Below, piece after piece: positions 1-52,794 of a stretch of DNA of 64,000 bases. Position 1 is the stretch's first letter. Every line of letters starts with the position of its first letter. The stretch comes from Escherichia coli. GTDB taxonomy: Bacteria > Pseudomonadota > Gammaproteobacteria > Enterobacterales > Enterobacteriaceae. The position numbers and the translations under genes are program-made. The stretch lies in NCBI RefSeq assembly GCF_044324875.1, contig NZ_CP172185.1; one strand, written 5' to 3'. The notes beneath the pieces were generated by a model. That model was not told the origin of the DNA, did not search any database, and saw only the letters and a program-made list of their open reading frames with translations.

Positions 1-199
1 CAAGAAAGTTCACCGCATCACACAGTGAAATACCCGCCTCAATATGCTGCTCAATCACACGTTCATCGGCGAACGGTGTGTCATTCAGCGTGAGGCCGTA
101 GTGCTGGTCCAGCAGCCGGGTGAGCAGTGTCTGCCAGATTTCAACCGGAGACGGGCAGCGCGATGTTGCCCGTACGTGTGTGTCGGGGAATGTTTTCAT
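1..199 (-). CDS. cbtA: CbtA/YeeV-family toxin, partial (3' end lies beyond window start)
   Basis: Minus-strand translation from ATG at 199-197 gives [66 protein letters not shown], recognisable as CbtA/YeeV/YkfI family; lies directly downstream of the antitoxin gene. Confidence 0.75.
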
Positions 200-257
200 C
201 TTAAGTACTCTGTAACAGGTGATGATAAAGAAGTGCTGTCCGGGGTTATGCGGTGGT

Positions 258-623
258 TCAGGGTGTTGCCGGTGTCGGATAAATGGCGATATACACGTAA
301 CCACAACTGCCGAGGGTGTCGGCATCGCAGGTCAGCCCTTTCGCATACAGTGTCACGGTATGCTGATGGCGGGGACTGAGTTCACCGCTGGTGAGCATGA
401 GTTCCAGCTGTTTCATCAGCAGCGGAAAGGCCTGGTCCAGGTGGTACGCATCTGCGTCGCTGAACCGGCCTCTGATACCGGCGCGGTCTGCAAGGTAATG
501 CAGGCGGTTACCCTCCTGCACCAGACGGGCACCGAAACAGGGCGTCACGGTGCAGGGCAGCCCCCACCAGGGGCGGTCGCTGTTGTCGTCAGGATGCGTT
601 GTCCCGGTGAGTGTGTCTGACAT
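258..623 (-). CDS. cbeA: CbeA/YeeU-family antitoxin
   Basis: 121-aa [55 protein letters not shown]..., recalled similarity to YeeU/CbeA; upstream partner of the toxin ORF. Confidence 0.85.
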
Positions 624-673
624 GATAAAGTCCTCACTGATAATCGGTTAAGAATGGTTTTAACAATGACGGG

Positions 674-1330
674 TCAGCCGGCGCGCAGACCGGCTTCGGT
701 GAAGGTGTATCCGTTGATGAGAAGGGCCTCATCCACGGCGTCGTCTGAGGTCAGCCAGTCGTACTCGTTTTCCAGTTGACTGTATAACCAGAAGGCAAGG
801 TCCCGCAGGGCGTCACAGACAACGGTTTCCGCGCTGGCTGTCATTGCCTGTCCGGTCGGACTGTCCCGGGTGACGGTGATATCCATGCTGTACGGATGGC
901 AGTAGTGTCCCCGGTGGCGGATTTCAGCCTGAAGCTGCCGGAAGTTACGCTTCTGCACCGCCTGCAGGGCATCCGCGATACGATGAAGCTCACGGTCCTG
1001 CGGGGCATATTCCCTGATTTTCCGGGGTGCCGCTGGCTGCCAGCGCCAGCGTCCTTCAAAACAGGCTCCGTCCCCCTGGCTGCAGAATCCGCTGAACCAG
1101 ATGCACGGCTCTTCCATAAACCTGCCGTTGCTGAGCCGGATAACACGCTGGCGGAGGGCAATCCCGACAATCTCACAGACCGTCCTGAAGTCCTCATACA
1201 CGTTTTCATACCAGTTGCTGTCAGCATGATGCTGACGGTACCATTCACGGGCCTTCTCCCGTGCTGTGGCGGAAAGTTCATCCGGCGTATACACGGTGGT
1301 GATGATAATTCTGCTCATCCGCATCTCCAC
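674..1330 (-). CDS. hypothetical protein within the TA/antirestriction operon (family not recognised)
   Basis: 218-aa ORF tightly packed between the YeeT-like and CbeA genes (5-bp and 50-bp gaps), same strand; start may be M1 (1330) or MSRIII (1318). Confidence 0.45.
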   Translation of the reverse strand: MEMRMSRIIITTVYTPDELSATAREKAREWYRQHHADSNWYENVYEDFRTVCEIVGIALRQRVIRLSNGRFMEEPCIWFSGFCSQGDGACFEGRWRWQPAAPRKIREYAPQDRELHRIADALQAVQKRNFRQLQAEIRHRGHYCHPYSMDITVTRDSPTGQAMTASAETVVCDALRDLAFWLYSQLENEYDWLTSDDAVDEALLINGYTFTEAGLRAG

Positions 1331-1334
1331 TGAC

Positions 1335-1556
1335 TCAGTTCAGGGTGACGCTCATCAGCCGGACATACGGGCCAAAACTGTCCTTCCGGCGTTCGGCAAA
1401 CACGGCAAGCACACCGGGGATATCCTGCACTTCACGACCGGTATACGCTTCAGCACTGCCGTGCCAGCGGTATTTACCGGTACAGAACGGAAAAAGACGG
1501 GATGACGGATACTGACGGTGAACGCGCATGGCTTCACCACGGGTGATGATTTTCAT
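1335..1556 (-). CDS. YeeT/YkfH-like DUF987 protein
   Basis: 73-aa ORF MKIITRGEAMRVHRQYPSSRLFPFCTGKYRWHGSAEAYTGREVQDIPGVLAVF..., conserved position between the RadC-like and antitoxin genes. Confidence 0.7.
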   Translation of the reverse strand: MKIITRGEAMRVHRQYPSSRLFPFCTGKYRWHGSAEAYTGREVQDIPGVLAVFAERRKDSFGPYVRLMSVTLN

Positions 1557-1645
1557 GAGAACAGTCCTCCTGAATGTGAAAGTGAGAAACAGCTGAGAAA
1601 GAGAAACTGAAGTGACAATATGAAGGTGGCTGTGACGGTGACGGA

Positions 1646-2122
1646 TTAAAGCAGACCGTGTTCCGCAAAGGAGAACACCCGGCTGCCACCGACTATCAAA
1701 TGGTCCGGTACCCGGATATCCACCAGGGCCAGTGCCTGTACCAGACGTTCAGTGATAAGGCGGTCTGCCTTACCGGGTGTGACCTCACCGGACGGATGAT
1801 TGTGCGCCAGCACCACGGCAGCGGCATTGTGGTACAGGGCGCGTTTAACCACCTCCCGGGGATGCACTTCCGTGCGGTTGATGGTGCCGGTGAAGAGGGT
1901 TTCACCGGCAATCAGCTGATTCTGGTTGTTCAGGTACAGCACCCGGAACTCTTCCCGCTCCAGTCCCGCCATGTGCAGAATCAGCCATTCCCGTGCCGCA
2001 TGCGTGGAGGTGAAGGCCACGCCGGGTTCATGAAGATGGCGGTCCAGGGTTTTCAGGGCCCGCTGAATGAGGCTGCGCTCGCCGGGCGTCATCGCGCCGG
2101 GCAGAAAGGAAATCTGTTGCAT
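1646..2122 (-). CDS. RadC-like JAB-domain protein (YeeS/YfjY/YkfG family)
   Basis: Translation from internal Met MQQISFLPGAMTPGERSLIQRALK... contains HNHPSG and the D-rich JAMM-like region (VLAHNHPSGEVTPGKADRLITERL); start 2122 chosen by agreement with family N-terminus. Confidence 0.8.
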   Translation of the reverse strand: MQQISFLPGAMTPGERSLIQRALKTLDRHLHEPGVAFTSTHAAREWLILHMAGLEREEFRVLYLNNQNQLIAGETLFTGTINRTEVHPREVVKRALYHNAAAVVLAHNHPSGEVTPGKADRLITERLVQALALVDIRVPDHLIVGGSRVFSFAEHGLL

Positions 2123-2133
2123 AACCTCACTCC

Positions 2134-2607
2134 TCAGTCGATGATGCGCATAATGGCGCTGCATTCCGGATGCTGCAGGGCGTAATCCCGCAGCCGGTAA
2201 TAATGGACCGTCATGGCATAATGCTCCGTACGGCAGGCGTGATGACTGTAGGCCATCAGGCAGGCGGCAATGCCGGCGGCTTCAGGGCTCATTTCCGCGC
2301 GGTTGCCGTTCATGGTGTTAAACAGTGCCCATGTTTCGTCATCATCGTCACCCGGTTCGGGAGCCATAAATGCGCCGCCGTTGTTCAGGGTGTACATATT
2401 CCAGATACCCCCACTGTAGTCTTCACACAGACGGTCCATCCAGCCGAAGATTCGGGGCTCAAGGGTCACCCACTGCGGAATGAGGCCAAAGTGCTGCGGC
2501 CAGAAGCTGATGCGCTGTTCGTCAGGCACTGGGCTGGCAACCAGCTGAGGTGGATTATTCCCGGATGCAGTGGTTGCGGAAACAGAGTCATGCGAAACCG
2601 TTTTCAT
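2134..2607 (-). CDS. antirestriction protein (YfjX/YeeR-region antirestriction family)
   Basis: ORF with MKTVSHDSVSATTASGNNPPQLVASPVPDEQRISFWPQHFG... and acidic GDDDDETW stretch; the track ORF starts further upstream inside the IS21 end, so start trimmed to ATG at 2607. Confidence 0.75.
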   Translation of the reverse strand: MKTVSHDSVSATTASGNNPPQLVASPVPDEQRISFWPQHFGLIPQWVTLEPRIFGWMDRLCEDYSGGIWNMYTLNNGGAFMAPEPGDDDDETWALFNTMNGNRAEMSPEAAGIAACLMAYSHHACRTEHYAMTVHYYRLRDYALQHPECSAIMRIID

Positions 2608-2825
2608 AAGTGAAATCCTTAAGTGCAAAATGGCATCTGAATCGATCGCAGTTTGGCATTCGAATCGATCATGATTTGGCATCCATCTCCGATCACAGTT
2701 TGGCATCACAATCGATCACGATTTGGCATGCTTCCGATCATTGATTGGCATCCTGCCAGTCACTCCGGGAATTAACTCTTTTCACCACAGTCTCCATTGC
2801 CGTGTTTAAACCAGTGGAGACGTCA

Positions 2826-4391
2826 ATGTCCAGAAAGAGAAAATCCAGGAGCACTATGGAAACCTGTTTTAAGATCCTTCAGCTCAAGTTCGACAAGAAG
2901 CTGACTAACCGTTGTATCGGACTGACGTTACACATCAGCGCCTCAACCGTTTTTGAGGTTCTTGCCCGCTTCAAAGCCTCTTCTCTGTCATGGCCATTAC
3001 CTGCTGATATATCCCATGACACGCTGGAGAAACTCATTTTTCCGCCCAAAGACACCTTTGCATCAGAGCTTGTAATGCCTGACATGTTGTACTTCGATAC
3101 GGAAATGAGAAAACCAGGTGTGACGCGGCAACTGTTGTGGATGGAATACAAGGCACAGGCGGGTAACAAAGCGATGGGATACTCGCACTTCTGCCGTTGC
3201 TACCGGGAGTGGAAAAAAACGCGACGTCTCTCCATGCGCCAGGAGCATCGTGCCGGCGAAAAGCTTTTTATCGACTTCTGTGGTCCTACGGTTCCTGTTA
3301 TTAATCCGGACACCGGTGAGATACGCCGCGTGGCAATCTTCGTGGCCGTAATGGGGGCGTCCAACTATACCTACGTTGAAGCGTGCGAAGGTCAGGACAT
3401 GATGTCATGGTTAAATGCCCACAGCCGTTGCCTGACCTTCCTGGGCGGCGTACCGAAGCTGCTCATCCCCGATAACCTCAGAAGCGCAGTGAAAAAGGCC
3501 GATCGATATGAGCCTGTCATCAACGACAGTTATCAGGCACTGGCTGAGCACTATGGCACGGTTATCATCCCGGCCCGACCACGCAAACCTAAAGATAAAC
3601 CAAAAGCAGAAAACGGCGTCCTCATCGTTGAACGATGGCTTCTTGCCCGCATCCGTAATGAAACCTTCCACACGCTCAGGGCGCTGAATGCGCGCCTTAG
3701 GGAGTTACTGACAGACATGAATAACCGGCCAATGAAGGGGTACGGCAATCAAACCCGTGCAGAACGCTTCCGCATACTGGATGCGCCAGCACTCTCTCCG
3801 CTGCCTCTGGCACCTTATGAATACACGGAATACAAAGCTGTGAAGGTTGGCCCTGACTACCACGTTGAATATGCCCGTCACTGGTACTCCGTTCCACACG
3901 AACTGGTCGGTCAGCGTCTGTCACTGAAGGCGGGGCAGTCGGTGGTACAGCTCTGGCACAAGGGGCAGTGTGTGGCGCAACATCCGCGCAGCACACATGA
4001 ATATAAACACACAACCAATCCGCTTCACATGCCAGAGCGCCACCGGCAGCACGGGACATGGACACCGGAACGCCTGATCGAGCAGGGAAAACGTACGGGC
4101 CCGTCCACAGGCCGGGTGGTTGAATCCATGCTGAAGGCAAAACCCCATCCGGAACTGGCTTATCGTGCAGTTCTGGGGCTGCTGGCACTTCAGAAAAAAT
4201 ACGGCCCGGAACGGCTGGAAAAGGCCTGTTACGTTGCCCTGCACTATAACGCCCCTGACAGACGCTTTATCGACAATCTGCTGCGTCACCATCGGGAGAA
4301 CCTGGAGCTTCCATTATCCCGCCAGGGCGAACAACATCCGGCATATGCTTCAGAGCATGAAAACCTGCGTGGTCCGGGCTACTACCACTGA
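2826..4391 (+). CDS. istA: IS21-family transposase IstA
   Basis: ATG at 2826 preceded by GGAG; translation has the IS21 IstA integrase-type core; N-terminal 27 residues of the track ORF read through the IS end and were trimmed. Confidence 0.85.
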   Translation: MSRKRKSRSTMETCFKILQLKFDKKLTNRCIGLTLHISASTVFEVLARFKASSLSWPLPADISHDTLEKLIFPPKDTFASELVMPDMLYFDTEMRKPGVTRQLLWMEYKAQAGNKAMGYSHFCRCYREWKKTRRLSMRQEHRAGEKLFIDFCGPTVPVINPDTGEIRRVAIFVAVMGASNYTYVEACEGQDMMSWLNAHSRCLTFLGGVPKLLIPDNLRSAVKKADRYEPVINDSYQALAEHYGTVIIPARPRKPKDKPKAENGVLIVERWLLARIRNETFHTLRALNARLRELLTDMNNRPMKGYGNQTRAERFRILDAPALSPLPLAPYEYTEYKAVKVGPDYHVEYARHWYSVPHELVGQRLSLKAGQSVVQLWHKGQCVAQHPRSTHEYKHTTNPLHMPERHRQHGTWTPERLIEQGKRTGPSTGRVVESMLKAKPHPELAYRAVLGLLALQKKYGPERLEKACYVALHYNAPDRRFIDNLLRHHRENLELPLSRQGEQHPAYASEHENLRGPGYYH

Positions 4392-4407
4392 CAGAAGGAA
4401 CAACAGT

Positions 4408-5163
4408 ATGAGTGATAACCTGTTAAACAAACTGACCCAACTGAAACTCCCGGCGATGGCCGGGAGCCTGATACGGCAGCGGGAAACGCCTCAGACCTAC
4501 GACGAACTGTCGTTCGAGGAAAGGCTGACGCTGCTGGTTGATGACGAGCTTCTGAGCAGGGAAAACAGCCGTGTGGCACGGTTGAGAAAAAATGCCGGCC
4601 TGAAATACCAGGCAACACCGGAAGGGCTGCGCTATCCGGCCTCAAGAGGTCTGCGGGCTGAACAGATGAGAGAACTGCTGAACGGCCACTACATAACCCA
4701 CAGGAAAAACCTGCTGATAACCGGTCCGACAGGATGTGGCAAGAGCTGGATAGCCAATGCGCTGGGCGAACAGGCATGTCGACAGAAACACAGCGTCCGG
4801 TACTGTAGAACCGGGCGATTACTGGAACAACTGGCTCAGGGACGTGTTGATGGCAGCTGGCTGAAATATCTGAAACAGTTGCAAAAAATACAGGTTCTAA
4901 TCCTGGACGATCTGGGGCTGGAACAGTTAAGTAACGCCCAGTGTAATGACCTTCTGGAGCTCATAGAGGATCGTTACGGACAAAGCAGCACGATAGTGGT
5001 AAGCCAGTTCCCGGTAGATAAATGGCATGGTCTGATGGAGAACCCAACAACAGCAGATGCCATCCTGGACAGACTGGTACATAACTCACACCGAGTGGTC
5101 CTTCAGGGAGAGTCACTGAGGAAAAATCCCCCGGTAGTGGAAAGCAGCGAAAAAACGCGTTAA
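4408..5163 (+). CDS. istB: IS21-family helper ATPase IstB
   Basis: MSDNLLNKLTQLKLPAMAG... with Walker A GPTGCGKS and Walker B ILDDLG; 16 bp after istA stop. Confidence 0.9.
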   Translation: MSDNLLNKLTQLKLPAMAGSLIRQRETPQTYDELSFEERLTLLVDDELLSRENSRVARLRKNAGLKYQATPEGLRYPASRGLRAEQMRELLNGHYITHRKNLLITGPTGCGKSWIANALGEQACRQKHSVRYCRTGRLLEQLAQGRVDGSWLKYLKQLQKIQVLILDDLGLEQLSNAQCNDLLELIEDRYGQSSTIVVSQFPVDKWHGLMENPTTADAILDRLVHNSHRVVLQGESLRKNPPVVESSEKTR

Positions 5164-5262
5164 AAAGCGGTAGAAAAAGTTAAGTTCCCGGTTGATCGAA
5201 TGGATGCGAATCGCTGATCGGACTTCGATGCCAATCCGTGATCGAATAGAGCGGAATACGCA

Positions 5263-5320
5263 CTTAAGTGAATAAGTGAACAAGTGAATTAAGGAAATAA
5301 GTGAATGAATAAGTGAATAA
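5263..5320. repeat. array of AAGTGAA(T/C) 8-bp repeats; target of the IS21 insertion
   Basis: Copies at 5266, 5274, 5282, 5299, 5311 plus one at 2608 on the other side of the IS; lies upstream of the antirestriction-RadC-TA operon. Confidence 0.5.
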
Positions 5321-5356
5321 GAGAGAAAAGACAGGGCACTGACAGCGTCGCGTTAA

Positions 5357-6175
5357 TCAGCGCAGGCTCTCCAGCAGCGTTTCCGTCATCACCCACAATG
5401 CGCGGTTGAGCTTAATGTCGGTGTCAATGCTGTGAATGGCCCGGGTGTGGATACGTTTTCCTTTTGCACTGCGCCCCTGAAGACCACCCTTGAGCATATT
5501 CTCCTGGATGGTCTGATAAGCACTCCACAGGTCCTTACCGTAATCCTCCCGGCGTCGTGGCGTCAGAATGTCAGCGGTGGTGACGGGCTGATGTTCGTCA
5601 CCATAACGGTAAGTCAGGGCGGCCTGTGCCAGCGCTTGGCGAGCCGGTGGTGGTAAAATCAGCGACTGCATGGCATCACGCTTCTCCTCAATCCGGTCAA
5701 AAACCCCCACCACTTCGTAAGCCCCTTCGATGACCCTGTCCACCACGTTTCCCCGGTGTGGCACACGCACCTCTCCGAGAGACTGACCGCAGACGCACCC
5801 GTTCTGACACACGAACCGGAAGTAACCCGGCAGCATCTGGTAGCTGGAGGTACCGTCATGGGAGTTGAGCAGAATGATTTCCGGGACATGCTGCCCGTTT
5901 ATCTCCCCGTCACGGCGCAGACGCAGCATGTGCTTTGTGTATCCCCGACGTCCCGGGTCCCGCACGCGGGTCTGGCAGGCAAAGAAGGGCTGAAAGCCTT
6001 CCCGCTGCAGGCTTTCCAGCACGGTAATGGTGGGGATGTATGTATAGTTCCGGCTCCGGGAGGTGTGCTTATCTTCCCCGAAAATCCCGGGCACATGGTG
6101 CATCAGTTCTTCATGTGTCAGCGGACGGTCACGGCGTATCTGGTTCGCATAACCAAAACGACTGGCTAATCGCAT
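5357..6175 (-). CDS. DUF932-family protein (YfjQ/YafZ-like)
   Basis: 272-aa ORF MRLASRFGYANQIRRDRPLTHEELMHHVPGIFGEDKHTSRSRNYTYIPT..., family typical of CP4-like islands. Confidence 0.8.
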   Translation of the reverse strand: MRLASRFGYANQIRRDRPLTHEELMHHVPGIFGEDKHTSRSRNYTYIPTITVLESLQREGFQPFFACQTRVRDPGRRGYTKHMLRLRRDGEINGQHVPEIILLNSHDGTSSYQMLPGYFRFVCQNGCVCGQSLGEVRVPHRGNVVDRVIEGAYEVVGVFDRIEEKRDAMQSLILPPPARQALAQAALTYRYGDEHQPVTTADILTPRRREDYGKDLWSAYQTIQENMLKGGLQGRSAKGKRIHTRAIHSIDTDIKLNRALWVMTETLLESLR

Positions 6176-6218: not shown

Positions 6219-6244
6219 TGAAAAAGCCGCGTCTCCCGGAGAAG
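6219..6244 (-). terminator. candidate Rho-independent terminator hairpin
   Basis: GCCGCGTC..GACGCGGC 8-bp stem; on the minus strand it is followed by a T-run (TTTTTCATTG). Confidence 0.4.
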
Positions 6245-7253
6245 ACGCGGCCTGATGGATGAAATGAATGAGGGTTTACCGAAGTCCTTCAGCATTGAGG
6301 TGAAGCCGCCGGAAATGTGTTCCCGGGTCATCTTCGATAAATACATTGCGGTAAGCTGTTATGGCAGAAACCGCCTGCACGTGTGAGAAAGGTCTTCGCT
6401 TAAGACGTACTCTGTGTGATCCGGTATTTCTGGTTTCTCCTGATTAATAGCCTCTGCCACAAAGTGTGGAAGAGGCTGAATCATGGTATTTACTTCTTTC
6501 ATCATGGTGGTATTCCGGTGTATTAACCGGGATCTGATTCCGGAAAATAAGGAATAAACGTAAAGGAGCAGAATGCTCGTTATGCCAGACACGCAGGGGG
6601 TAATGCCTCTTCCGGGTGGTTAACCATATTGCCGGGATGTGATGCTTCATATTCCATAACAGAGCGTTGCCTGATGATACTGACTACCAGTGGTTTGATT
6701 CACATATTGGTCGCTGCCCGTTGCTGTACGCCGGCGGCGAAAATGATCTCCAGAGCATTCTGATCGATAACACGGGCCAGATTCGCGTTCAGATTTTCAG
6801 TTTCATTTTCGGTCAGCAGGAAACTGACGGCAAGCCACGTCACCTGCTCCTGAATCATGGCAGGAATTTTGATGCGCTCCTCTTCAGCCAGAGTACCGGC
6901 AATTTTTCCTGATACCACTGCAATCATTCCTCCCGGAACGCCGCCCGCCAGCGAATATGAAATAACCGGGGTATGCGTTCAGTGATACAGCCAGCCAGTA
7001 AAGCCGGACCGGACAGACACAGCAATATGAGTCCTGCCAGCACAGACGCTGTGCTGGTTAATGCTCTGAACAAAAAGCGAAGAATGGCAAATCCTGCGAT
7101 AAGCAGGATCAGCACGCCGACTATCTGTAACATAGTCCCCCTGATAAATATCATGTTATTGTTAATGCCAGCGAATGTGGCGTTGAATATCCGTTGCGCC
7201 GGTCCGGGTCCCGATCATGATGACCGGGACCACAAAGAGGCAATGCAGAATTG

Positions 7254-10200
7254 TCAGAAAGTCACATTCAGCGTGGCCTGACCGTTATAACCTTCAGCGC
7301 TGCTGCCGCTGACGCTGCGGGCATAACCGGCCTGAACACCCAGGGTGATATTTTCCCGGACACGGGCTTCCAGTCCGGCCTGCAGGTCCAGTGATGTGCC
7401 ATTCTGTGACGGTGAGAACATCATGTTACTGCCGGCTGCGGCTGTACCCATGCTCATGTCTCCCCGGGAGCTGAAGGTGCGGATAACAGAAGGCTGTACC
7501 CACCCGTTCACCGGCAGTTCACTCACACTGTGTCTGGCACTGCCGCGCAGGGTGTCACGGGATGAGCTGCCTTCACCAAAGCTCATATCGTTGTGGCTGC
7601 CCAGACGGAAACCGGCACGCACATGTTGTGCACTGCCATGCCCGAACTTCACATAACCGGCGTTATCCTGGCCGTCATCCAGGGAGAGTCCCTGCCAGGT
7701 GTACTGCAGTTGTGGCTCCAGCATCAGATGGTCAGTGATACTGAAGGGCAGACCGGTTTCCAGTGAGCCCAGCCAGCCCCGGCCCCGGGCGCGGAAGTCG
7801 TTACTGTCCGATGACGCTTTCATGCTGTGGCGGGTTTCCTGTGCCACAAGGTCAGCCCACAGGCCGGAGGACGTGTGTACCAGATTCAGGTATCCGCCCA
7901 GGCTGCCGGCATCATCCCGGACCGTGCCGGCGCGGGAGCCGTTATCATCCCTGACATCAACGGCAGAATGACCCGCAGCACCATATACCCCTGCGGTCAC
8001 AGACATACCGGCAACCTCTGTTCTCAGCAGGTCCCCCTCCAGACGGACGAAGCCATAGCTGCCGCTGCTTTCCGGCGTGGCCCCACGGACAATACCGCCG
8101 TTGTTACCGTGACCGAGATGACCGCCCTGAATGCTGAGGCGGACGCTGTTATTTTCACCGTTCACATCGCTCTGATGGCTGCGGGAGCCTGCCAGAATCC
8201 GGTCGTAGTCCATCCCCTGCGTCAGCATGGAGGCGTACAGGGGGACTTCCGCGCGATAACGCGTTTCACTGCGCAGATACCAGCTCTGGTCACCGTCACG
8301 GGTCAGGCTGTAGTCATACACCCCGGCCTGCAGCGGGTTGCCCTGAACAAAAGCGCCTTCCTCCGTGGTGGCACCATTAATGGCCTCCACCACCTGAATG
8401 CCCTTACCGGTGGTCGCCAGCCCCGACGCACTGTTGCCGGCGTTCACCAGGTTCAGGGTGGTTTTCCCGGTGGCACTGCCACCGTCAATCACCAGCCTGT
8501 CGGCATTGTGCTGTGCCAGGTCAGGGCGGACACGCAGGGTGATGCTGCCGTTCTGTCCCCGGAGATTTTTCACCGTCAGGGTGGCCGGCGTGAAGGCTCC
8601 GCTGCGGGTGCTGACGAAGTTAATCTTCCCGGCATGACGGAGTTCATCCACCACCGATTTCACCGTGGCGTTGTCCGGAATGTTCCAGGTGGCACCGGAG
8701 GTGAGGGTGACATCCGTGGGGTCAATGGCACCGGTCAGCACGGTGCTGCCGGTCAGGCTCAGGGTGGTACCGCGCCGGGCAATGATATCCGTGGTGACGG
8801 TACTGTCGGCCAGCGTCAGTGCGCCTTCGTTAAGGCTGACGGCGTTCCGGGTGAGAGTGGTGTTGCTGACAGTGAGTGTGCCGCTTCCTGATTTTTCCAC
8901 CCTGCCGTTACCGGTGAGTACGCCCCCCTGCAGAAGCGCATCGCCTTCACGGGTGACCAGGGTGCCGTCATTCACCGTCTTCCCGGAGAGGGTCAGCGTG
9001 GCACCGTTATTCAGCGTGGTGGTGCCGGTCAGGGTTCCGCCCTGCGCGGTGAGCTGCCCGCCGTTCACGGTGGTGTCACGGGCGCTGTCGCCGGCCTTCA
9101 GGGTAAAGGCGCTTCCCTTGCCCAGCGCGAGTCCTGAGGCGTGTCCGCTGCCGATACTGAAGGCACCTCCACCGTCATACTGACCGCTGACAGTGGCACC
9201 GGAATCGGCCAGCAGCATACCGCCTCTGCCCATGGATACCGTGGTGGCTGTACCACCGGTCAGGACTGCCAGCGTGCCCCCGTCATCCACCCGGGTGTCA
9301 GTGGCCGTGTGACCGTTCAGTACATCAAGACGACCGCCTGACTCCAGCAGCACGCCGTCAGCCTTTCCGTCTGCCACGGAAAAGTGGCCCGCACGGTTTG
9401 TGCCGGAGACGGTGGCTGCCGTACCGGTAACCAGCGCACCGCCCGTATTCTGGGTGACGGCGGTGGCCTTACCACCGGCATTCACCTGCAGCTTTCCTTT
9501 CTAATTGATGGTGGTATTCTCAGCCACCGCTCCCGTCTTCACCACCTGCCAGCCACCGTCGTTAATCACCGTGTTCTGTGCCACACCGCCCTGATGAACA
9601 TACTGGTTGCCGCCGTTAAGGGTGGTGGACAGAGCGTGACCATGTACCGACTGGTCGCCACCGGCCTGTATGGTGGTTTCTCCTGCCATACCTTCGCCCG
9701 CAATGACCTGCCGCCCGTTTCTGTTCACGGTGGTGGAGAGTGCCATCCCTGCCACGAGCTGACCGGTGGCATCGTTATCAGAGTCCGGCCCGCCTTCAGC
9801 GCCGGTATTCACAACGGTGTCGGTTGCCACTGCGCCGGGTTTAACGGTCTGATAACCGTCGCGGTTAATGACAGTACCGACAGCCCTGCCTCCCTGATGT
9901 ACCCACTGCTCACCACCGTTCAGGGTGGTGTTCACCGACTGCCCCCGGAGGCTCTGCCCCCCGCCGGCATGGATAACGGTGTCAGTGGCTGTACCGCCCG
10001 TCATCACAACCTGACGACCATTTGCGGTGACCGTGGTGTTGCTGGCTGTCCCGCCATTATCTATCCACTGCCCACCGTTGTTTTCCTCACTGTCCGGCCC
10101 CAGCTCCAGCCCGGTACTAATGGTCATGCCACTGGCCGTACCGAAGACAATCTGGTTGTCGTGATTTGTCAGCGTACCGCCATTCACTGTATCTCCTGCC

Positions 10201-10373
10201 TGTACAGCGCTGTCAGCAGCCGGCGCGGGCGCTGACATGACTGCAGCAAGGGACAGTGCGGCAGCCACGCCCGCACGCTTCCCCCGCGTGCGGGCCAGTT
10301 CAGAGGCCACCGCGAAGGTGCCCGTGACGTGATTCCATACCAGCCGGTAACTGGTGTTCAGATGTCGCTTCAT
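7254..10373 (-). pseudogene. flu: antigen 43 (Ag43) self-associating autotransporter, inactivated by in-frame amber codon
   Basis: N-terminal ORF MKRHLNTSYRLVWNHVTGTFAVASELARTRGKRAG... (9501-10373) and C-terminal beta-domain ORF ending ...SAEGYNGQATLNVTF (7254-9485) are in the same frame, separated by TAG at 9503-9501 where Ag43 has Gln (NTT-x-N-Q-KG context). Confidence 0.9.
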
Positions 10374-32687: not shown

Positions 32688-33578
32688 TCAGGCTGCCAGA
32701 TCATCGTTTCCGATGGAAGCATAATAAGATTTTTCTGCTTCTGCCGGTGGGATATGGCCCAGCCTTTCCAGCAATCGTCGATTGTTATACCAGTCCACCC
32801 ACGTGAGTGTGGCCAGCTCCACTTCTGTCCGGTTTTTCCAGCTCTTACGGTGTATTACCTCCGCTTTGTAAAGGCCATTGATGCTCTCCGCCATCGCGTT
32901 GTCATACGAGTCACCAGTACTTCCTGTTGATGCCAGTAATCCGGCTTCCTTAAGCCGCTGTGTGTAGGCCAGCGATACATACTGAGAACCTTTATCACTG
33001 TGATGGACTGTGCCGGACGGTCGACGGGCCCATAACGCCTGCTCCAGAGCATCCAGCACGAATGTCGTTTCCATAGACGATGAGACCCGCCACCCCACGA
33101 TGTATCCGGCAAACACATCAATGATGAACGCCACATAGACGACCCCCTCCCATGTGCTGACGTAAGTAAAATCAGCCACCCACAACTGGTCAGGACGTTC
33201 TGCCACAAACTGACGGTTTACGCGGTCGCCTGCGGCAACGGCTTTCCGGCTGACGGTAGTGCGGACCTTTTTACCCCGGAGAACACCGGCAAGTCCCATA
33301 ACCGCCATGAGGCGCGCCACTGTACATCTGGCTACCCTGATTCCTTCCCGTAACAACTGACGCCAGACTTTACGCACACCGTATACCTGATGATTCCCAT
33401 CGTATACGCGCAGTATCTCTTTCTTCAGCCAGTCATCGCGCTGCGCACGGGCACTGCGTTTATAAGGATGATGTCGCTGTTGCTGACAGTGGTAATACGT
33501 TGACGGGGCAATATGTAGTTCACTGCATACCGGTCCGACCCCGTACAGCTTACGCAGCTTATCCAGCAGTGGCATCAC
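32688..33578 (-). CDS. IS629 OrfB transposase
   Basis: 296-aa DDE ORF. Confidence 0.9.
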
Positions 33579-42332: not shown

Positions 42333-43223
42333 TCAGGCTGCCAGATCATCGTTTCCGATGGAAGCATAATAAGCTTTTTCTGCTTCTGCCGGTGGGATAT
42401 GGCCCAGCCTTTCCAGCAATCGTCGATTGTTATACCAGTCCACCCACGTGAGTGTGGCCAGCTCCACTTCTGTCCGGTTTTTCCAGCTCTTACGGTGTAT
42501 TACCTCCGCTTTGTAAAGGCCATTGATGCTCTCCGCCATCGCGTTGTCATACGAGTCACCAGTACTTCCTGTTGATGCCAGTAATCCGGCTTCCTTAAGC
42601 CGCTGTGTGTAGGCCAGCGATACATACTGAGAACCTTTATCACTGTGATGGACTGTGCCGGACGGTCGACGGGCCCATAACGCCTGCTCCAGAGCATCCA
42701 GCACGAATGTCGTTTCCATAGACGATGAGACCCGCCACCCCACGATGTATCCGGCAAACACATCAATGATGAACGCCACATAGACGACCCCCTGCCATGT
42801 GCTGACGTAAGTAAAATCAGCCACCCACAACTGGTCAGGACGTTCTGCCACAAACTGACGGTTTACGCGGTCGCCTGCGGCAACGGCTTTCCGGCTGACG
42901 GTAGTGCGGACCTTTTTACCCCGGAGAACACCGGCAAGTCCCATAACCGCCATGAGGCGCGCCACTGTACATCTGGCTACCCTGATTCCTTCCCGTAACA
43001 ACTGACGCCAGACTTTACGCACACCGTATACCTGATGATTCCCATCGTATACGCGCAGTATCTCTTTCTTCAGCCAGTCATCGCGCTGCGCACGGGCACT
43101 GCGTTTATCCGGATGATGTCGCTGTTGCTGACAGTGGTAATACGTTGACGGGGCAATATGTAGTTCACTGCATACCGGTCCGACCCCGTACAGCTTACGC
43201 AGCTTATCCAGCAGTGGCATCAC
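42333..43223 (-). CDS. IS629 OrfB transposase
   Basis: 296-aa DDE ORF. Confidence 0.9.
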
Positions 43224-49646: not shown

Positions 49647-50537
49647 TCAGGCTGCCAGATCATCGTTTCCGATGGAAGCATAATAAGCTTTTTCTGCTTC
49701 TGCCGGTGGGATATGGCCCAGCCTTTCCAGCAATCGTCGATTGTTATACCAGTCCACCCACGTGAGTGTGGCCAGCTCCACTTCTGTCCGGTTTTTCCAG
49801 CTCTTACGGTGTATTACCTCCGCTTTGTAAAGGCCATTGATGCTCTCCGCCATCGCGTTGTCATACGAGTCACCAGTACTTCCTGTTGATGCCAGTAATC
49901 CGGCTTCCTTAAGCCGCTGTGTGTAGGCCAGCGATACATACTGAGAACCTTTATCACTGTGATGGACTGTGCCGGACGGTCGACGGGCCCATAACGCCTG
50001 CTCCAGAGCATCCAGCACGAATGTCGTTTCCATAGACGATGAGACCCGCCACCCCACGATGTATCCGGCAAACACATCAATGATGAACGCCACATAGACG
50101 ACCCCCTGCCATGTGCTGACGTAAGTAAAATCAGCCACCCACAACTGGTCAGGACGTTCTGCCACAAACTGACGGTTTACGCGGTCGCCTGCGGCAACGG
50201 CTTTCCGGCTGACGGTAGTGCGGACCTTTTTACCCCGGAGAACACCGGCAAGTCCCATAACCGCCATGAGGCGCGCCACTGTACATCTGGCTACCCTGAT
50301 TCCTTCCCGTAACAACTGACGCCAGACTTTACGCACACCGTATACCTGATGATTCCCATCGTATACGCGCAGTATCTCTTTCTTCAGCCAGTCATCGCGC
50401 TGCGCACGGGCACTGCGTTTATCCGGATGATGTCGCTGTTGCTGACAGTGGTAATACGTTGACGGGGCAATATGTAGTTCACTGCATACCGGTCCGACCC
50501 CGTACAGCTTACGCAGCTTATCCAGCAGTGGCATCAC
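49647..50537 (-). CDS. IS629 OrfB transposase
   Basis: 296-aa DDE ORF. Confidence 0.9.
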
Positions 50538-51580: not shown

Positions 51581-51907
51581 ATGACTAAAAATACTCGTTT
51601 TTCCCCCGAAGTCCGTCAGAGGGCGATTCGTATGGTTCTGGAAAGTCAGGGCGAATATGACTCACAGTGGGCGGCAATTTGTTCCATTGCCCCAAAGATT
51701 GGCTGTACACCGGAGACTCTGCGTGTCTGGGTACGCCAGCATGAGCGGGATACCGGAGGCGGTGATGGCGGGCTCACCACCGCTGAACGTCAGCGTCTGA
51801 AAGAGCTGGAACGTGAAAATCGTGAACTGCGCCGCAGTAACGATATCCTTCGCCAGGCTTCCGCTTATTTTGCGAAGGCGGAGTTCGACCGCCTCTGGAA
51901 AAAGTGA
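51581..51907 (+). CDS. IS629 OrfA
   Basis: 108-aa ORF. Confidence 0.9.
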
Positions 51908-52794
51908 TGCCACTGCTGGATAAGCTGCGTAAGCTGTACGGGGTCGGACCGGTATGCAGTGAACTACATATTGCCCCGTCAACGTATTACCACTGTCAGC
52001 AACAGCGACATCATCCGGATAAACGCAGTGCCCGTGCGCAGCGCGATGACTGGCTGAAGAAAGAGATACTGCGCGTATACGATGGGAATCATCAGGTATA
52101 CGGTGTGCGTAAAGTCTGGCGTCAGTTGTTACGGGAAGGAATCAGGGTAGCCAGATGTACAGTGGCGCGCCTCATGGCGGTTATGGGACTTGCCGGTGTT
52201 CTCCGGGGTAAAAAGGTCCGCACTACCGTCAGCCGGAAAGCCGTTGCCGCAGGCGACCGCGTAAACCGTCAGTTTGTGGCAGAACGTCCTGACCAGTTGT
52301 GGGTGGCTGATTTTACTTACGTCAGCACATGGCAGGGGGTCGTCTATGTGGCGTTCATCATTGATGTGTTTGCCGGATACATCGTGGGGTGGCGGGTCTC
52401 ATCGTCTATGGAAACGACATTCGTGCTGGATGCTCTGGAGCAGGCGTTATGGGCCCGTCGACCGTCCGGCACAGTCCATCACAGTGATAAAGGTTCTCAG
52501 TATGTATCGCTGGCCTACACACAGCGGCTTAAGGAAGCCGGATTACTGGCATCAACAGGAAGTACTGGTGACTCGTATGACAACGCGATGGCGGAGAGCA
52601 TCAATGGCCTTTACAAAGCGGAGGTAATACACCGTAAGAGCTGGAAAAACCGGACAGAAGTGGAGCTGGCCACACTCACGTGGGTGGACTGGTATAACAA
52701 TCGACGATTGCTGGAAAGGCTGGGCCATATCCCACCGGCAGAAGCAGAAAAAGCTTATTATGCTTCCATCGGAAACGATGATCTGGCAGCCTGA
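51904..52794 (+). CDS. IS629 OrfB transposase
   Basis: 296-aa DDE ORF. Confidence 0.9.

Follow-up and report, generated by a model that had tools for sequence, protein, structure and literature searches.

Organization of the locus

We have analyzed a 64,000-nucleotide stretch of the Escherichia coli contig NZ_CP172185.1 (assembly GCF_044324875.1), referred to here as the window, and describe its first 6,175 positions together with a hairpin that lies just beyond them. The region appears to be the distal accessory module of an integrative island of the CP4-44/CP4-57 type, in which genes for DUF932, a PF03230-family antirestriction protein, a RadC-like JAB protein, DUF987, DUF8835, a CbeA antitoxin and a CbtA toxin follow one another in this order on the minus strand, and it carries an insertion sequence (IS) of the IS21 family between the first two of these genes. 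The explanation that we consider probable for the locus as a whole is that of an island module hit by an ISSso4-type element, with an optional DUF8835 cargo gene and a set of lineage-specific repeats in the interrupted spacer. The genes of the module and the hairpin are as follows.

1..199, minus strand: 5' part of a CbtA_toxin (PF06755) gene, with 66 codons at 2-199 (Pfam E 1.3e-36, profile positions 1-66 of 112)
258..623, minus strand: CbeA_antitoxin (PF06154; CbeA/YeeU family) gene, 121 amino acids (Pfam E 1.1e-54)
674..1318, minus strand: DUF8835-family open reading frame (ORF) from the ATG used by the Prokaryotic Genome Annotation Pipeline (PGAP), 214 amino acids; 674-1330 from a GTG, 218 amino acids
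1335..1556, minus strand: DUF987 (YeeT-like) gene, 73 amino acids (Pfam PF06174, E 1.7e-38)
1646..2122, minus strand: RadC-like JAB-domain gene, YeeS/LfgB-like (Pfam PF04002, E 7.8e-44; TIGR00608)
2134..2607, minus strand: antirestriction gene (Antirestrict, PF03230), 157 amino acids (Pfam E 6.9e-37)
5357..6175, minus strand: DUF932 gene, YfjQ/YafZ-like (Pfam PF06067, E 1.1e-51)
6224..6253, minus strand: strong terminator-like hairpin upstream of DUF932, 13 pairs and a T tail

The composition and gene order of this minus-strand operon agree with those proposed in an earlier note made from the DNA sequence, with Pfam profile matches to confirm them and with DUF932 added at the upstream end. In type IV toxin-antitoxin systems of the CbtA/CbeA kind the toxin inhibits polymerization of FtsZ and MreB, and the antitoxin counteracts it without binding the toxin. 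Here the PF06154 gene (258-623) lies directly upstream of the PF06755 gene (start at 199) on the same strand, which is the domain arrangement of a type IV pair, and judged by their domains 2-199 and 258-623 are toxin and antitoxin genes of the CbtA/CbeA family; PGAP labels the latter 'type IV toxin-antitoxin system YeeU family antitoxin'. The toxin gene runs off the edge of the window, and the full 378-nucleotide gene is annotated in an identical allele in E. coli 23CRST013 (L001). This allele also provides the PGAP start of the RadC-like gene at 2122, in a reading frame that is open up to 2164. The ATG of the antirestriction gene at 2607 (2607-2605) is the PGAP start in the uninterrupted allele, and a 191-amino acid ORF beginning at a GTG at 2709 (2134-2709) was rejected as an artefact whose frame reads into the end of the IS. 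The DUF932 gene is now parted from the downstream genes by the IS, and at its upstream side the transcription unit probably ends at the hairpin at 6224-6253. A scan of the whole window against Rfam at gathering thresholds gave no match in 1-6175, leaving the spacer between DUF932 and the antirestriction gene unexplained by a known RNA element.

We compared the module with those of the K-12 islands CP4-44 (yeeS-yeeT-cbeA-cbtA-yeeW), CP4-57 (lfgA/yfjX-lfgB/yfjY-ypjJ-yfjZ-ypjF) and CP4-6 (yafX-ykfG-ykfH-yafW-ykfI). The order of antirestriction, RadC-like JAB, DUF987, YeeU-family antitoxin and CbtA-family toxin genes is common to the K-12 modules and the window, although CP4-44 differs in having yeeR in place of the antirestriction gene. 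The island type is also the same as in K-12, with DUF932 upstream and an Ag43 gene (the ORF from 7254) beyond it. Two differences bear on what follows. In the K-12 copies DUF987 is directly followed by the antitoxin gene, whereas a gene of 645 nucleotides is interposed in the window; the earlier note had placed this gene outside the canonical yeeS-yeeT-cbeA-cbtA set, and rightly so, as it is absent from CP4-44, CP4-57 and CP4-6 alike. The K-12 antirestriction genes, moreover, are preceded by a hairpin-containing spacer without the TTCACTT repeats that are found here.

An ISSso4-type element in the DUF932-antirestriction spacer

The inserted element and its immediate surroundings comprise the following features.

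2608..2623, minus strand: leader remnant of 16 bp on the antirestriction side, with a AAGTGAAA unit (2608-2615), the Shine-Dalgarno sequence AAGGA (2616-2620) and the left CTTAAG (2618-2623)
2624..5262, plus strand: complete IS21-family element of the ISSso4 type, 2,639 bp, with ends TGCAAAATGG...GAATACGCA
2856-4391 (alternative ATG at 2826), plus strand: istA (NF033546, E 9.7e-85, 284.6 bits against a cut-off of 160)
4408-5163, plus strand: istB (NF038214, E 9.4e-77, 257.8 bits against a cut-off of 200)
5263..5268: right copy of the target duplication CTTAAG, of which the left copy is at 2618-2623; a single CTTAAG is present in the empty site of L001

The element has the gene pair of the IS21 family, an IstA DDE transposase followed by an IstB AAA+ helper, and its ends (TGCAAAA...ACGCA) are of the TG...CA form that is typical of the family. 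Five sub-terminal direct repeats of about 20 nucleotides lie at 2641-2752, with inverted partners at 5193-5257 (D2, I1, I2). Full-length copies that are 100% identical to it are present at many other chromosomal and plasmid sites in E. coli, and PGAP assigns them to the ISSso4 family. The window copy thus resembles ISSso4 in its istA and istB genes, sub-terminal repeats, ends and short target duplication, and differs only in where it is inserted. The IS21-family identity given in the earlier note is confirmed by these profile matches, repeats and identical copies.

The insertion itself can be read from its empty site. The sequence to the left of the element (2,623 bp) is 100% identical to that of E. 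coli 23CRST013, in whose uninterrupted allele the gap between the antirestriction and DUF932 genes is 104 bp. Removal of the IS and of one CTTAAG from the window leaves a 136-bp string that is found exactly in 23CRST013, and this match proves the insertion, its boundaries and the 6-bp target duplication. The CTTAAG direct repeats had been noticed before, and the empty site establishes them as that duplication; the placement of the element inside a repeat-bearing spacer is likewise upheld, and its stated distance of 17 bp upstream of the antirestriction start is essentially right, there being 16 bases (2608-2623) between the end of the IS and the ATG. The exact junction of IS and island was not found in any complete RefSeq E. 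coli genome.

Targeting of the repeats by the element was considered and rejected. Five other copies have duplications of 5, 6, 5, 7 and 5 bp with unrelated target sequences, and the element therefore did not seek the repeats out. Independent ISSso4-type insertions are nonetheless found nearby in three other genomes, within about 700 bp and at different sites, one of them inside the 5' end of the antirestriction gene, which it truncates, and two in DUF932, which they destroy (L103, 3427-6066; L104, 3641-6280; L105, 3828-6466). The query used here detects one orientation only, such that these counts are silent on any orientation bias. The surroundings of DUF932 and the antirestriction gene may be a regional IS hot spot, or may simply reflect neutral accumulation. 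Two more ISSso4-type copies lie in genes for a 'dynamin family protein' (L098 and L102), a gene type that is also seen in the island L006, and in another E. coli allele (L008) the DUF932 gene is split by a group II intron reverse transcriptase.

A rare repeat array in the leader of the antirestriction gene

The right-hand part of the interrupted spacer contains the following.

5266..5318, minus strand: degenerate 8-bp tandem array of five AAGTGAAY units (TTCACTT in the sense of the operon), with a sixth unit at 2608
5319..5356, minus strand: remainder of the 104-bp DUF932-antirestriction spacer

A motif scan of the window places AAGTGAAY at 5266, 5274, 5282, 5299 and 5311, in agreement with the five copies listed in the earlier note. 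Only one further match occurs anywhere in the window, and since 4.5 are expected over all 64 kb on both strands, the clustering of five in one spacer is not due to chance. The additional copy reported at 2608 does exist, but only as AAGTGAAA, which matches the consensus at just 7 of 8 positions. In the sense of the operon the intact spacer reads ...TTTTCTCTCTTATTCACTTATTCATTCACTTATTTCCTTAATTCACTTGTTCACTTATTCACTTAAGGATTTCACTTATG and holds six TTCACTT units, the last two of which flank the Shine-Dalgarno sequence AAGGA. The 60 nucleotides before the ATG contain 2-3 G residues in repeat alleles, compared to 6-11 in the other alleles examined, and the leader of the repeat allele is not significantly folded (z -1.2). 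A consensus scan of L001 7000-9000 detected no sigma-70-like site in the intact spacer, and because a terminator-like hairpin lies upstream of DUF932, the spacer is most likely internal to a transcript that begins ahead of that gene.

Of 5,426 complete E. coli genomes, only about 11 have the window-type spacer allele in one piece. In ten of these the region has the same length over the query (451 bp), with no length change; the eleventh, AR_0085, is 90% identical and contains six perfect tandem TTCACTTA units and one more after the Shine-Dalgarno sequence. The comparison with uninterrupted alleles that the earlier note had proposed gives a divided answer: the intact array is retained in the identical allele L001, but none of the other homologous spacers that we examined has it, including those of O157:H7, ATCC 25922, two other common types and the regions upstream of K-12 yafX and lfgA (the spacers lacking it include L005-L009, L164 and L165). 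The common alleles L164 and L165 have what appears to be a single-copy precursor, CATTTATTCACATTACAAGGATTTCAC (CTCTCATTTATTCACATTACAAGGATTTCACTCATG). An exact search for three consecutive units in 100,044 species genomes, one per species, gave 58 hits scattered over bacteria that are not related to one another, Vibrio, Shewanella, Acinetobacter and Gastranaerophilales among them. No hit is in an antirestriction context, and the search thus provides no evidence for a conserved module.

Together these findings indicate that the array is a lineage-specific tandem duplication within an intergenic leader and not a conserved operator. The 8-bp units (TTCACTTA in the sense of the mRNA) would have arisen from a motif that is single-copy in the common alleles. 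They lie shortly before the Shine-Dalgarno sequence in a leader that is unstructured and poor in G, where it is possible that they modulate translation initiation, at most with a modest effect.

Probable consequences of the insertion

The ISSso4-type element entered the 104-bp spacer 16 bp ahead of the ATG, with duplication of CTTAAG. This hexamer overlaps the Shine-Dalgarno sequence, and the ribosome-binding site is therefore preserved on the side of the gene. The element is oriented antisense to the operon, and these 2.6 kb of antisense IS would part the six downstream genes from any promoter upstream of DUF932. A consensus scan, which gives a weak negative, revealed no sigma-70-like site reading out of the IS toward the antirestriction gene, and the antisense strand of the IS contains several terminator-like hairpins, in a number that is not above chance. 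With the IS antisense and with no outward promoter-like site, the six downstream genes have probably lost their link to transcription from upstream, and their expression is probably reduced, or reliant on internal promoters.

The interposed gene belongs to the DUF8835 family

The ORF at 674-1330 has no match among Pfam or NCBIfam models (the Pfam version used has no DUF8835 model). An identical protein in RefSeq, WP_045145966.1, is named 'DUF8835 domain-containing' or 'hypothetical', and similarity over the full length to DUF8835-labelled proteins, reaching 100% identity with WP_045145966.1, places the product in this family. It also matches PHROG 5162, a function-unknown group, over its full length (E 1.3e-34). 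Proteins related to it at 82-93% identity go by an older NCBI name, 'antitoxin of toxin-antitoxin stability system'. We note that one form of the DUF8835 product name in the annotation, 'DUF8835 domain-containing pootine', is a corruption of 'protein'.

The gene occurs at 2,830 places in 1,967 of the 5,426 complete E. coli genomes, and it lies between DUF987 and the antitoxin gene in every E. coli locus inspected; it would thus be optional cargo in about a third of E. coli genomes. The earlier note had called it unassigned, a claim that it was prepared to give up should a homology search identify a known family of these islands. The search does so: this is a routine island member that PGAP had already named. 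Beyond E. coli the family is large, with relatives in 3,446 clusters at 50% identity at E<=1e-3 (412 at E<=1e-30), on at least 491 viral contigs and on 108 plasmids, most of them alphaproteobacterial.

An AlphaFold2 (AF2) model of the 214-amino acid protein is of high confidence (predicted local distance difference test, pLDDT, 96.2) and has a compact alpha/beta fold. No structural relative of the model was found in the PDB, and a fold search of BFVD matched only uncharacterised phage proteins. In an alignment of 78 sequences the near-invariant positions are E14-L15, a loop G77-F-x-x-Q-G-D-G-A-x-F-x-G89, H141, W177/Y179 and N202-x-x-x-F206-x-x-x-G210, a conserved set that includes SQGDGA, His141, Glu14 and N-x-x-x-F-x-x-x-G. 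The family is acidic, with a median isoelectric point of 4.75. Homologues in DUF8835 and PHROG 5162 share both length (about 210 amino acids) and motifs with the window copy, and nothing sets the latter apart.

The contexts of more distant homologues are those of mobile elements. A homologue of about 60% identity in a Roseibium region resembling an integrative and conjugative element (ICE) is beside RadC, ParB_N and AAA_34 helicase genes, and one of similar identity on a Haematobacter conjugative plasmid is beside genes for an ArdC-like zincin, DUF2958, ParB_N and strawberry notch; neither has CbtA or CbeA nearby. Homologues on phage contigs have few annotated neighbors, among them ArdA and PD-(D/E)XK nucleases, again without CbtA/CbeA, and a census of neighbors on 78 phage contigs yielded no recurrent partner family. 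The homologues are thus found among the kinds of genes that make up the anti-restriction clusters in the leading or early regions of conjugative elements and phages (ArdA, ArdC, KlcA/ArdB, ParB_N, RadC). The window gene, which lies three genes downstream of the PF03230-family antirestriction gene, is like such clusters by its neighborhood only, and PADLOC gave no match for any of the five accessory proteins. In both alphaproteobacterial loci examined DUF8835 overlaps by 8 nucleotides an upstream ORF of 138 amino acids without a Pfam match (L012, 5592-6008; L166, 5592-6008), which may be a translationally coupled partner, distinct from DUF987.

In several E. coli assemblies (P0024, P0029 and P0006), in one case on a contig of 4.66 Mb, DUF8835 and CbeA are fused in frame as a single ORF of 342-343 amino acids. 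The fusion alleles lack the stop codon of DUF8835 together with most of the 50-nucleotide spacer, corresponding to 623-676 in the window, and the two parts are joined by the linker LPEDFIV.

Alternative interpretations

In the earlier note the 8-bp units were regarded as regulatory sites for the operon, and a reading in which they are operator- or iteron-like binding sites for a regulator of the genes from antirestriction to cbtA, now split by the IS, can appeal to six to seven evenly phased copies immediately upstream of a start codon and to an array that is unchanged in ten near-identical alleles. We consider it highly improbable. An operator would be expected to be kept in homologous loci with diverged flanks and to overlap or adjoin a promoter; here the repeats are a rare allele, missing from homologous spacers in their thousands, those of K-12, O157 and ATCC 25922 included, and the consensus scan offers no promoter-like site on which they could act. 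Confined to about 11 genomes, absent elsewhere and without such a site, the array cannot be a general control element of this type of operon. With a phase of 8 bp, furthermore, the units do not all face the same side of the helix, identical arrays turn up here and there in 58 unrelated genomes in the manner of a generic microsatellite, and the IS has left all but one unit on its far side, yet kept the ribosome-binding site. The tract of AR_0085, with six perfect tandem 8-mers of the kind that is prone to slippage, and the existence of two arrangements, with 6 or 7 units in spacers of 104 or 101 bp, could instead suggest a contingency repeat whose copy number tunes antirestriction expression in a phase-variable manner. 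This is very doubtful, as the ten window-type genomes have one and the same length over the query and no polymorphism in copy number, slippage is suppressed by the interruptions and the degeneracy of the window-type array, and the perfect tract is known from a single, diverged genome. A role for selection has also been weighed for the element, with the insertion site retained as an adaptive activation or silencing of the operon and not as a neutral hit in a dispensable island. Four independent ISSso4-type insertions in different alleles within about 700 bp of the DUF932/antirestriction junction, and the neat preservation of the ribosome-binding site in this one, speak for it; but the insertions differ in site and in duplication and have no target motif in common, DUF932 is destroyed by two of the others and the antirestriction gene is cut short by another, the scans gave no promoter-like site that reads outward, the one-orientation query allows no judgement of orientation bias, and islands of this kind gather IS elements generally, several others being present in the window. 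Adaptive selection of the site is thus improbable.

For DUF8835 an alternative is that it is a third component of the CbtA/CbeA system, acting as a co-antitoxin, as a chaperone or as a regulator by way of CbeA. Its position directly upstream of the antitoxin gene in all E. coli loci inspected, the in-frame fusions and the NCBI legacy name all point this way, and because of the fusions a link to toxin-antitoxin function is a live minority view. It is nevertheless unlikely, since DUF8835 is lacking in about two thirds of E. coli genomes and in all three K-12 systems, which work without it, and homologues of about 60% identity on an alphaproteobacterial conjugative plasmid, at an ICE-like chromosomal locus and on phage contigs have no CbtA/CbeA nearby. 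The protein has no similarity in sequence or fold to any antitoxin family, the Phd/YefM, RelB and StbD types included, or to solved antitoxin structures, and the legacy name seems untested: literature searches on the NCBI name, on DUF8835 and on the gene set returned nothing relevant to the family. This label is without support from sequence, fold or context, and is not to be read as a function. We favor, with low confidence and from the neighborhoods described above, a stand-alone establishment or anti-defence factor of mobile elements, a protein that would act on its own because it is found without CbtA/CbeA but beside ArdA, ArdC-like, ParB_N and RadC genes, and that would probably not be a third toxin-antitoxin component. 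A bolder form of this proposal, which we put forward as a tentative possibility, is that DUF8835 represents an unrecognised functional class with a new fold, either an anti-defence or establishment effector or an enzyme built around the SQGDGA loop, His141, Glu14 and Asn202, perhaps recruited beside CbeA in E. coli and occasionally fused to it, thereby coupling toxin-antitoxin activity to transfer of the element.

Several points weigh against the combined account of island module, ISSso4-type hit, optional cargo and lineage-specific repeats. The polar effect of the IS is drawn from consensus scans alone, which miss weak promoters and those that are not of the sigma-70 type. The anti-defence proposal comes from neighborhood only, most phage neighbors being unannotated, with no support from PADLOC, the PDB or the literature, and it has to accommodate both the natural DUF8835-CbeA fusions and a gene that abuts the antitoxin in every E. 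coli locus inspected. Finally, a perfect 6x8-bp array such as that of AR_0085 is uncommon in E. coli, and it could serve a function that has escaped notice.

In its overall outline the locus is ordinary. It is a known island module whose optional gene is already catalogued, in a rare allele with a short tandem duplication, and it was hit by a known IS at a site that is not specific. It matters little in itself, as one more IS insertion in a well-known IS-rich island in which the extra gene is a catalogued DUF. The only real upside is in what DUF8835 proteins do and in their fold, which is apparently new; these are properties of the family and not of this locus. With more than 3,400 clusters at 50% identity, a confident fold, no solved relative and a recurrent location next to antirestriction genes on mobile elements of three kinds, DUF8835 merits inclusion in screens for anti-defence activity and is a sensible choice for structure determination.

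Other features of the region

In K-12 CP4-57 (L004, 13920-14869) the genes yfjX and yfjY now go under the RefSeq names lfgA and lfgB, the latter with the description 'CP4-57 prophage protease'; according to a 2024 study (PMC10846083), LfgB cleaves MqsA, an antitoxin. The RadC-like gene of the window (1646-2122) is of the same Pfam family (PF04002) and in the same operon position as lfgB. The relevance of lfgA and lfgB to the 214-amino acid gene was considered and dismissed, these being the renamed yfjX and yfjY.

Farther to the right, the autotransporter gene at 7254-10373 (minus strand) seems to be split into ORFs of 743 and 290 amino acids, which fits the annotation of the identical 23CRST013 allele as an Ag43/Cah pseudogene with an 'internal stop'. 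An Rfam match to the IS102 small RNA (sRNA; 88 bits) at 12845-13041 (minus strand) corresponds to an IsrC-type RNA; in K-12 CP4-44 such an RNA sits just upstream of flu, and the position in the window fits the same island architecture. A match to a group II intron catalytic domain (RF00029, 64.9 bits) is located at 56690-56776 (minus strand), beside an ORF of 819 amino acids (53550-56009). There are also five ALIL frameshift pseudoknots (RF01497; 33504-33620, 43149-43265, 50463-50579, 51862-51978 and 59302-59418), four with identical scores, and four of the five are paired with identical 296-amino acid ORFs (32688-33578, 42333-43223, 49647-50537 and 51904-52794). The pseudoknots and ORFs together indicate multiple copies of one IS3-family element, and a window that is very rich in IS elements.

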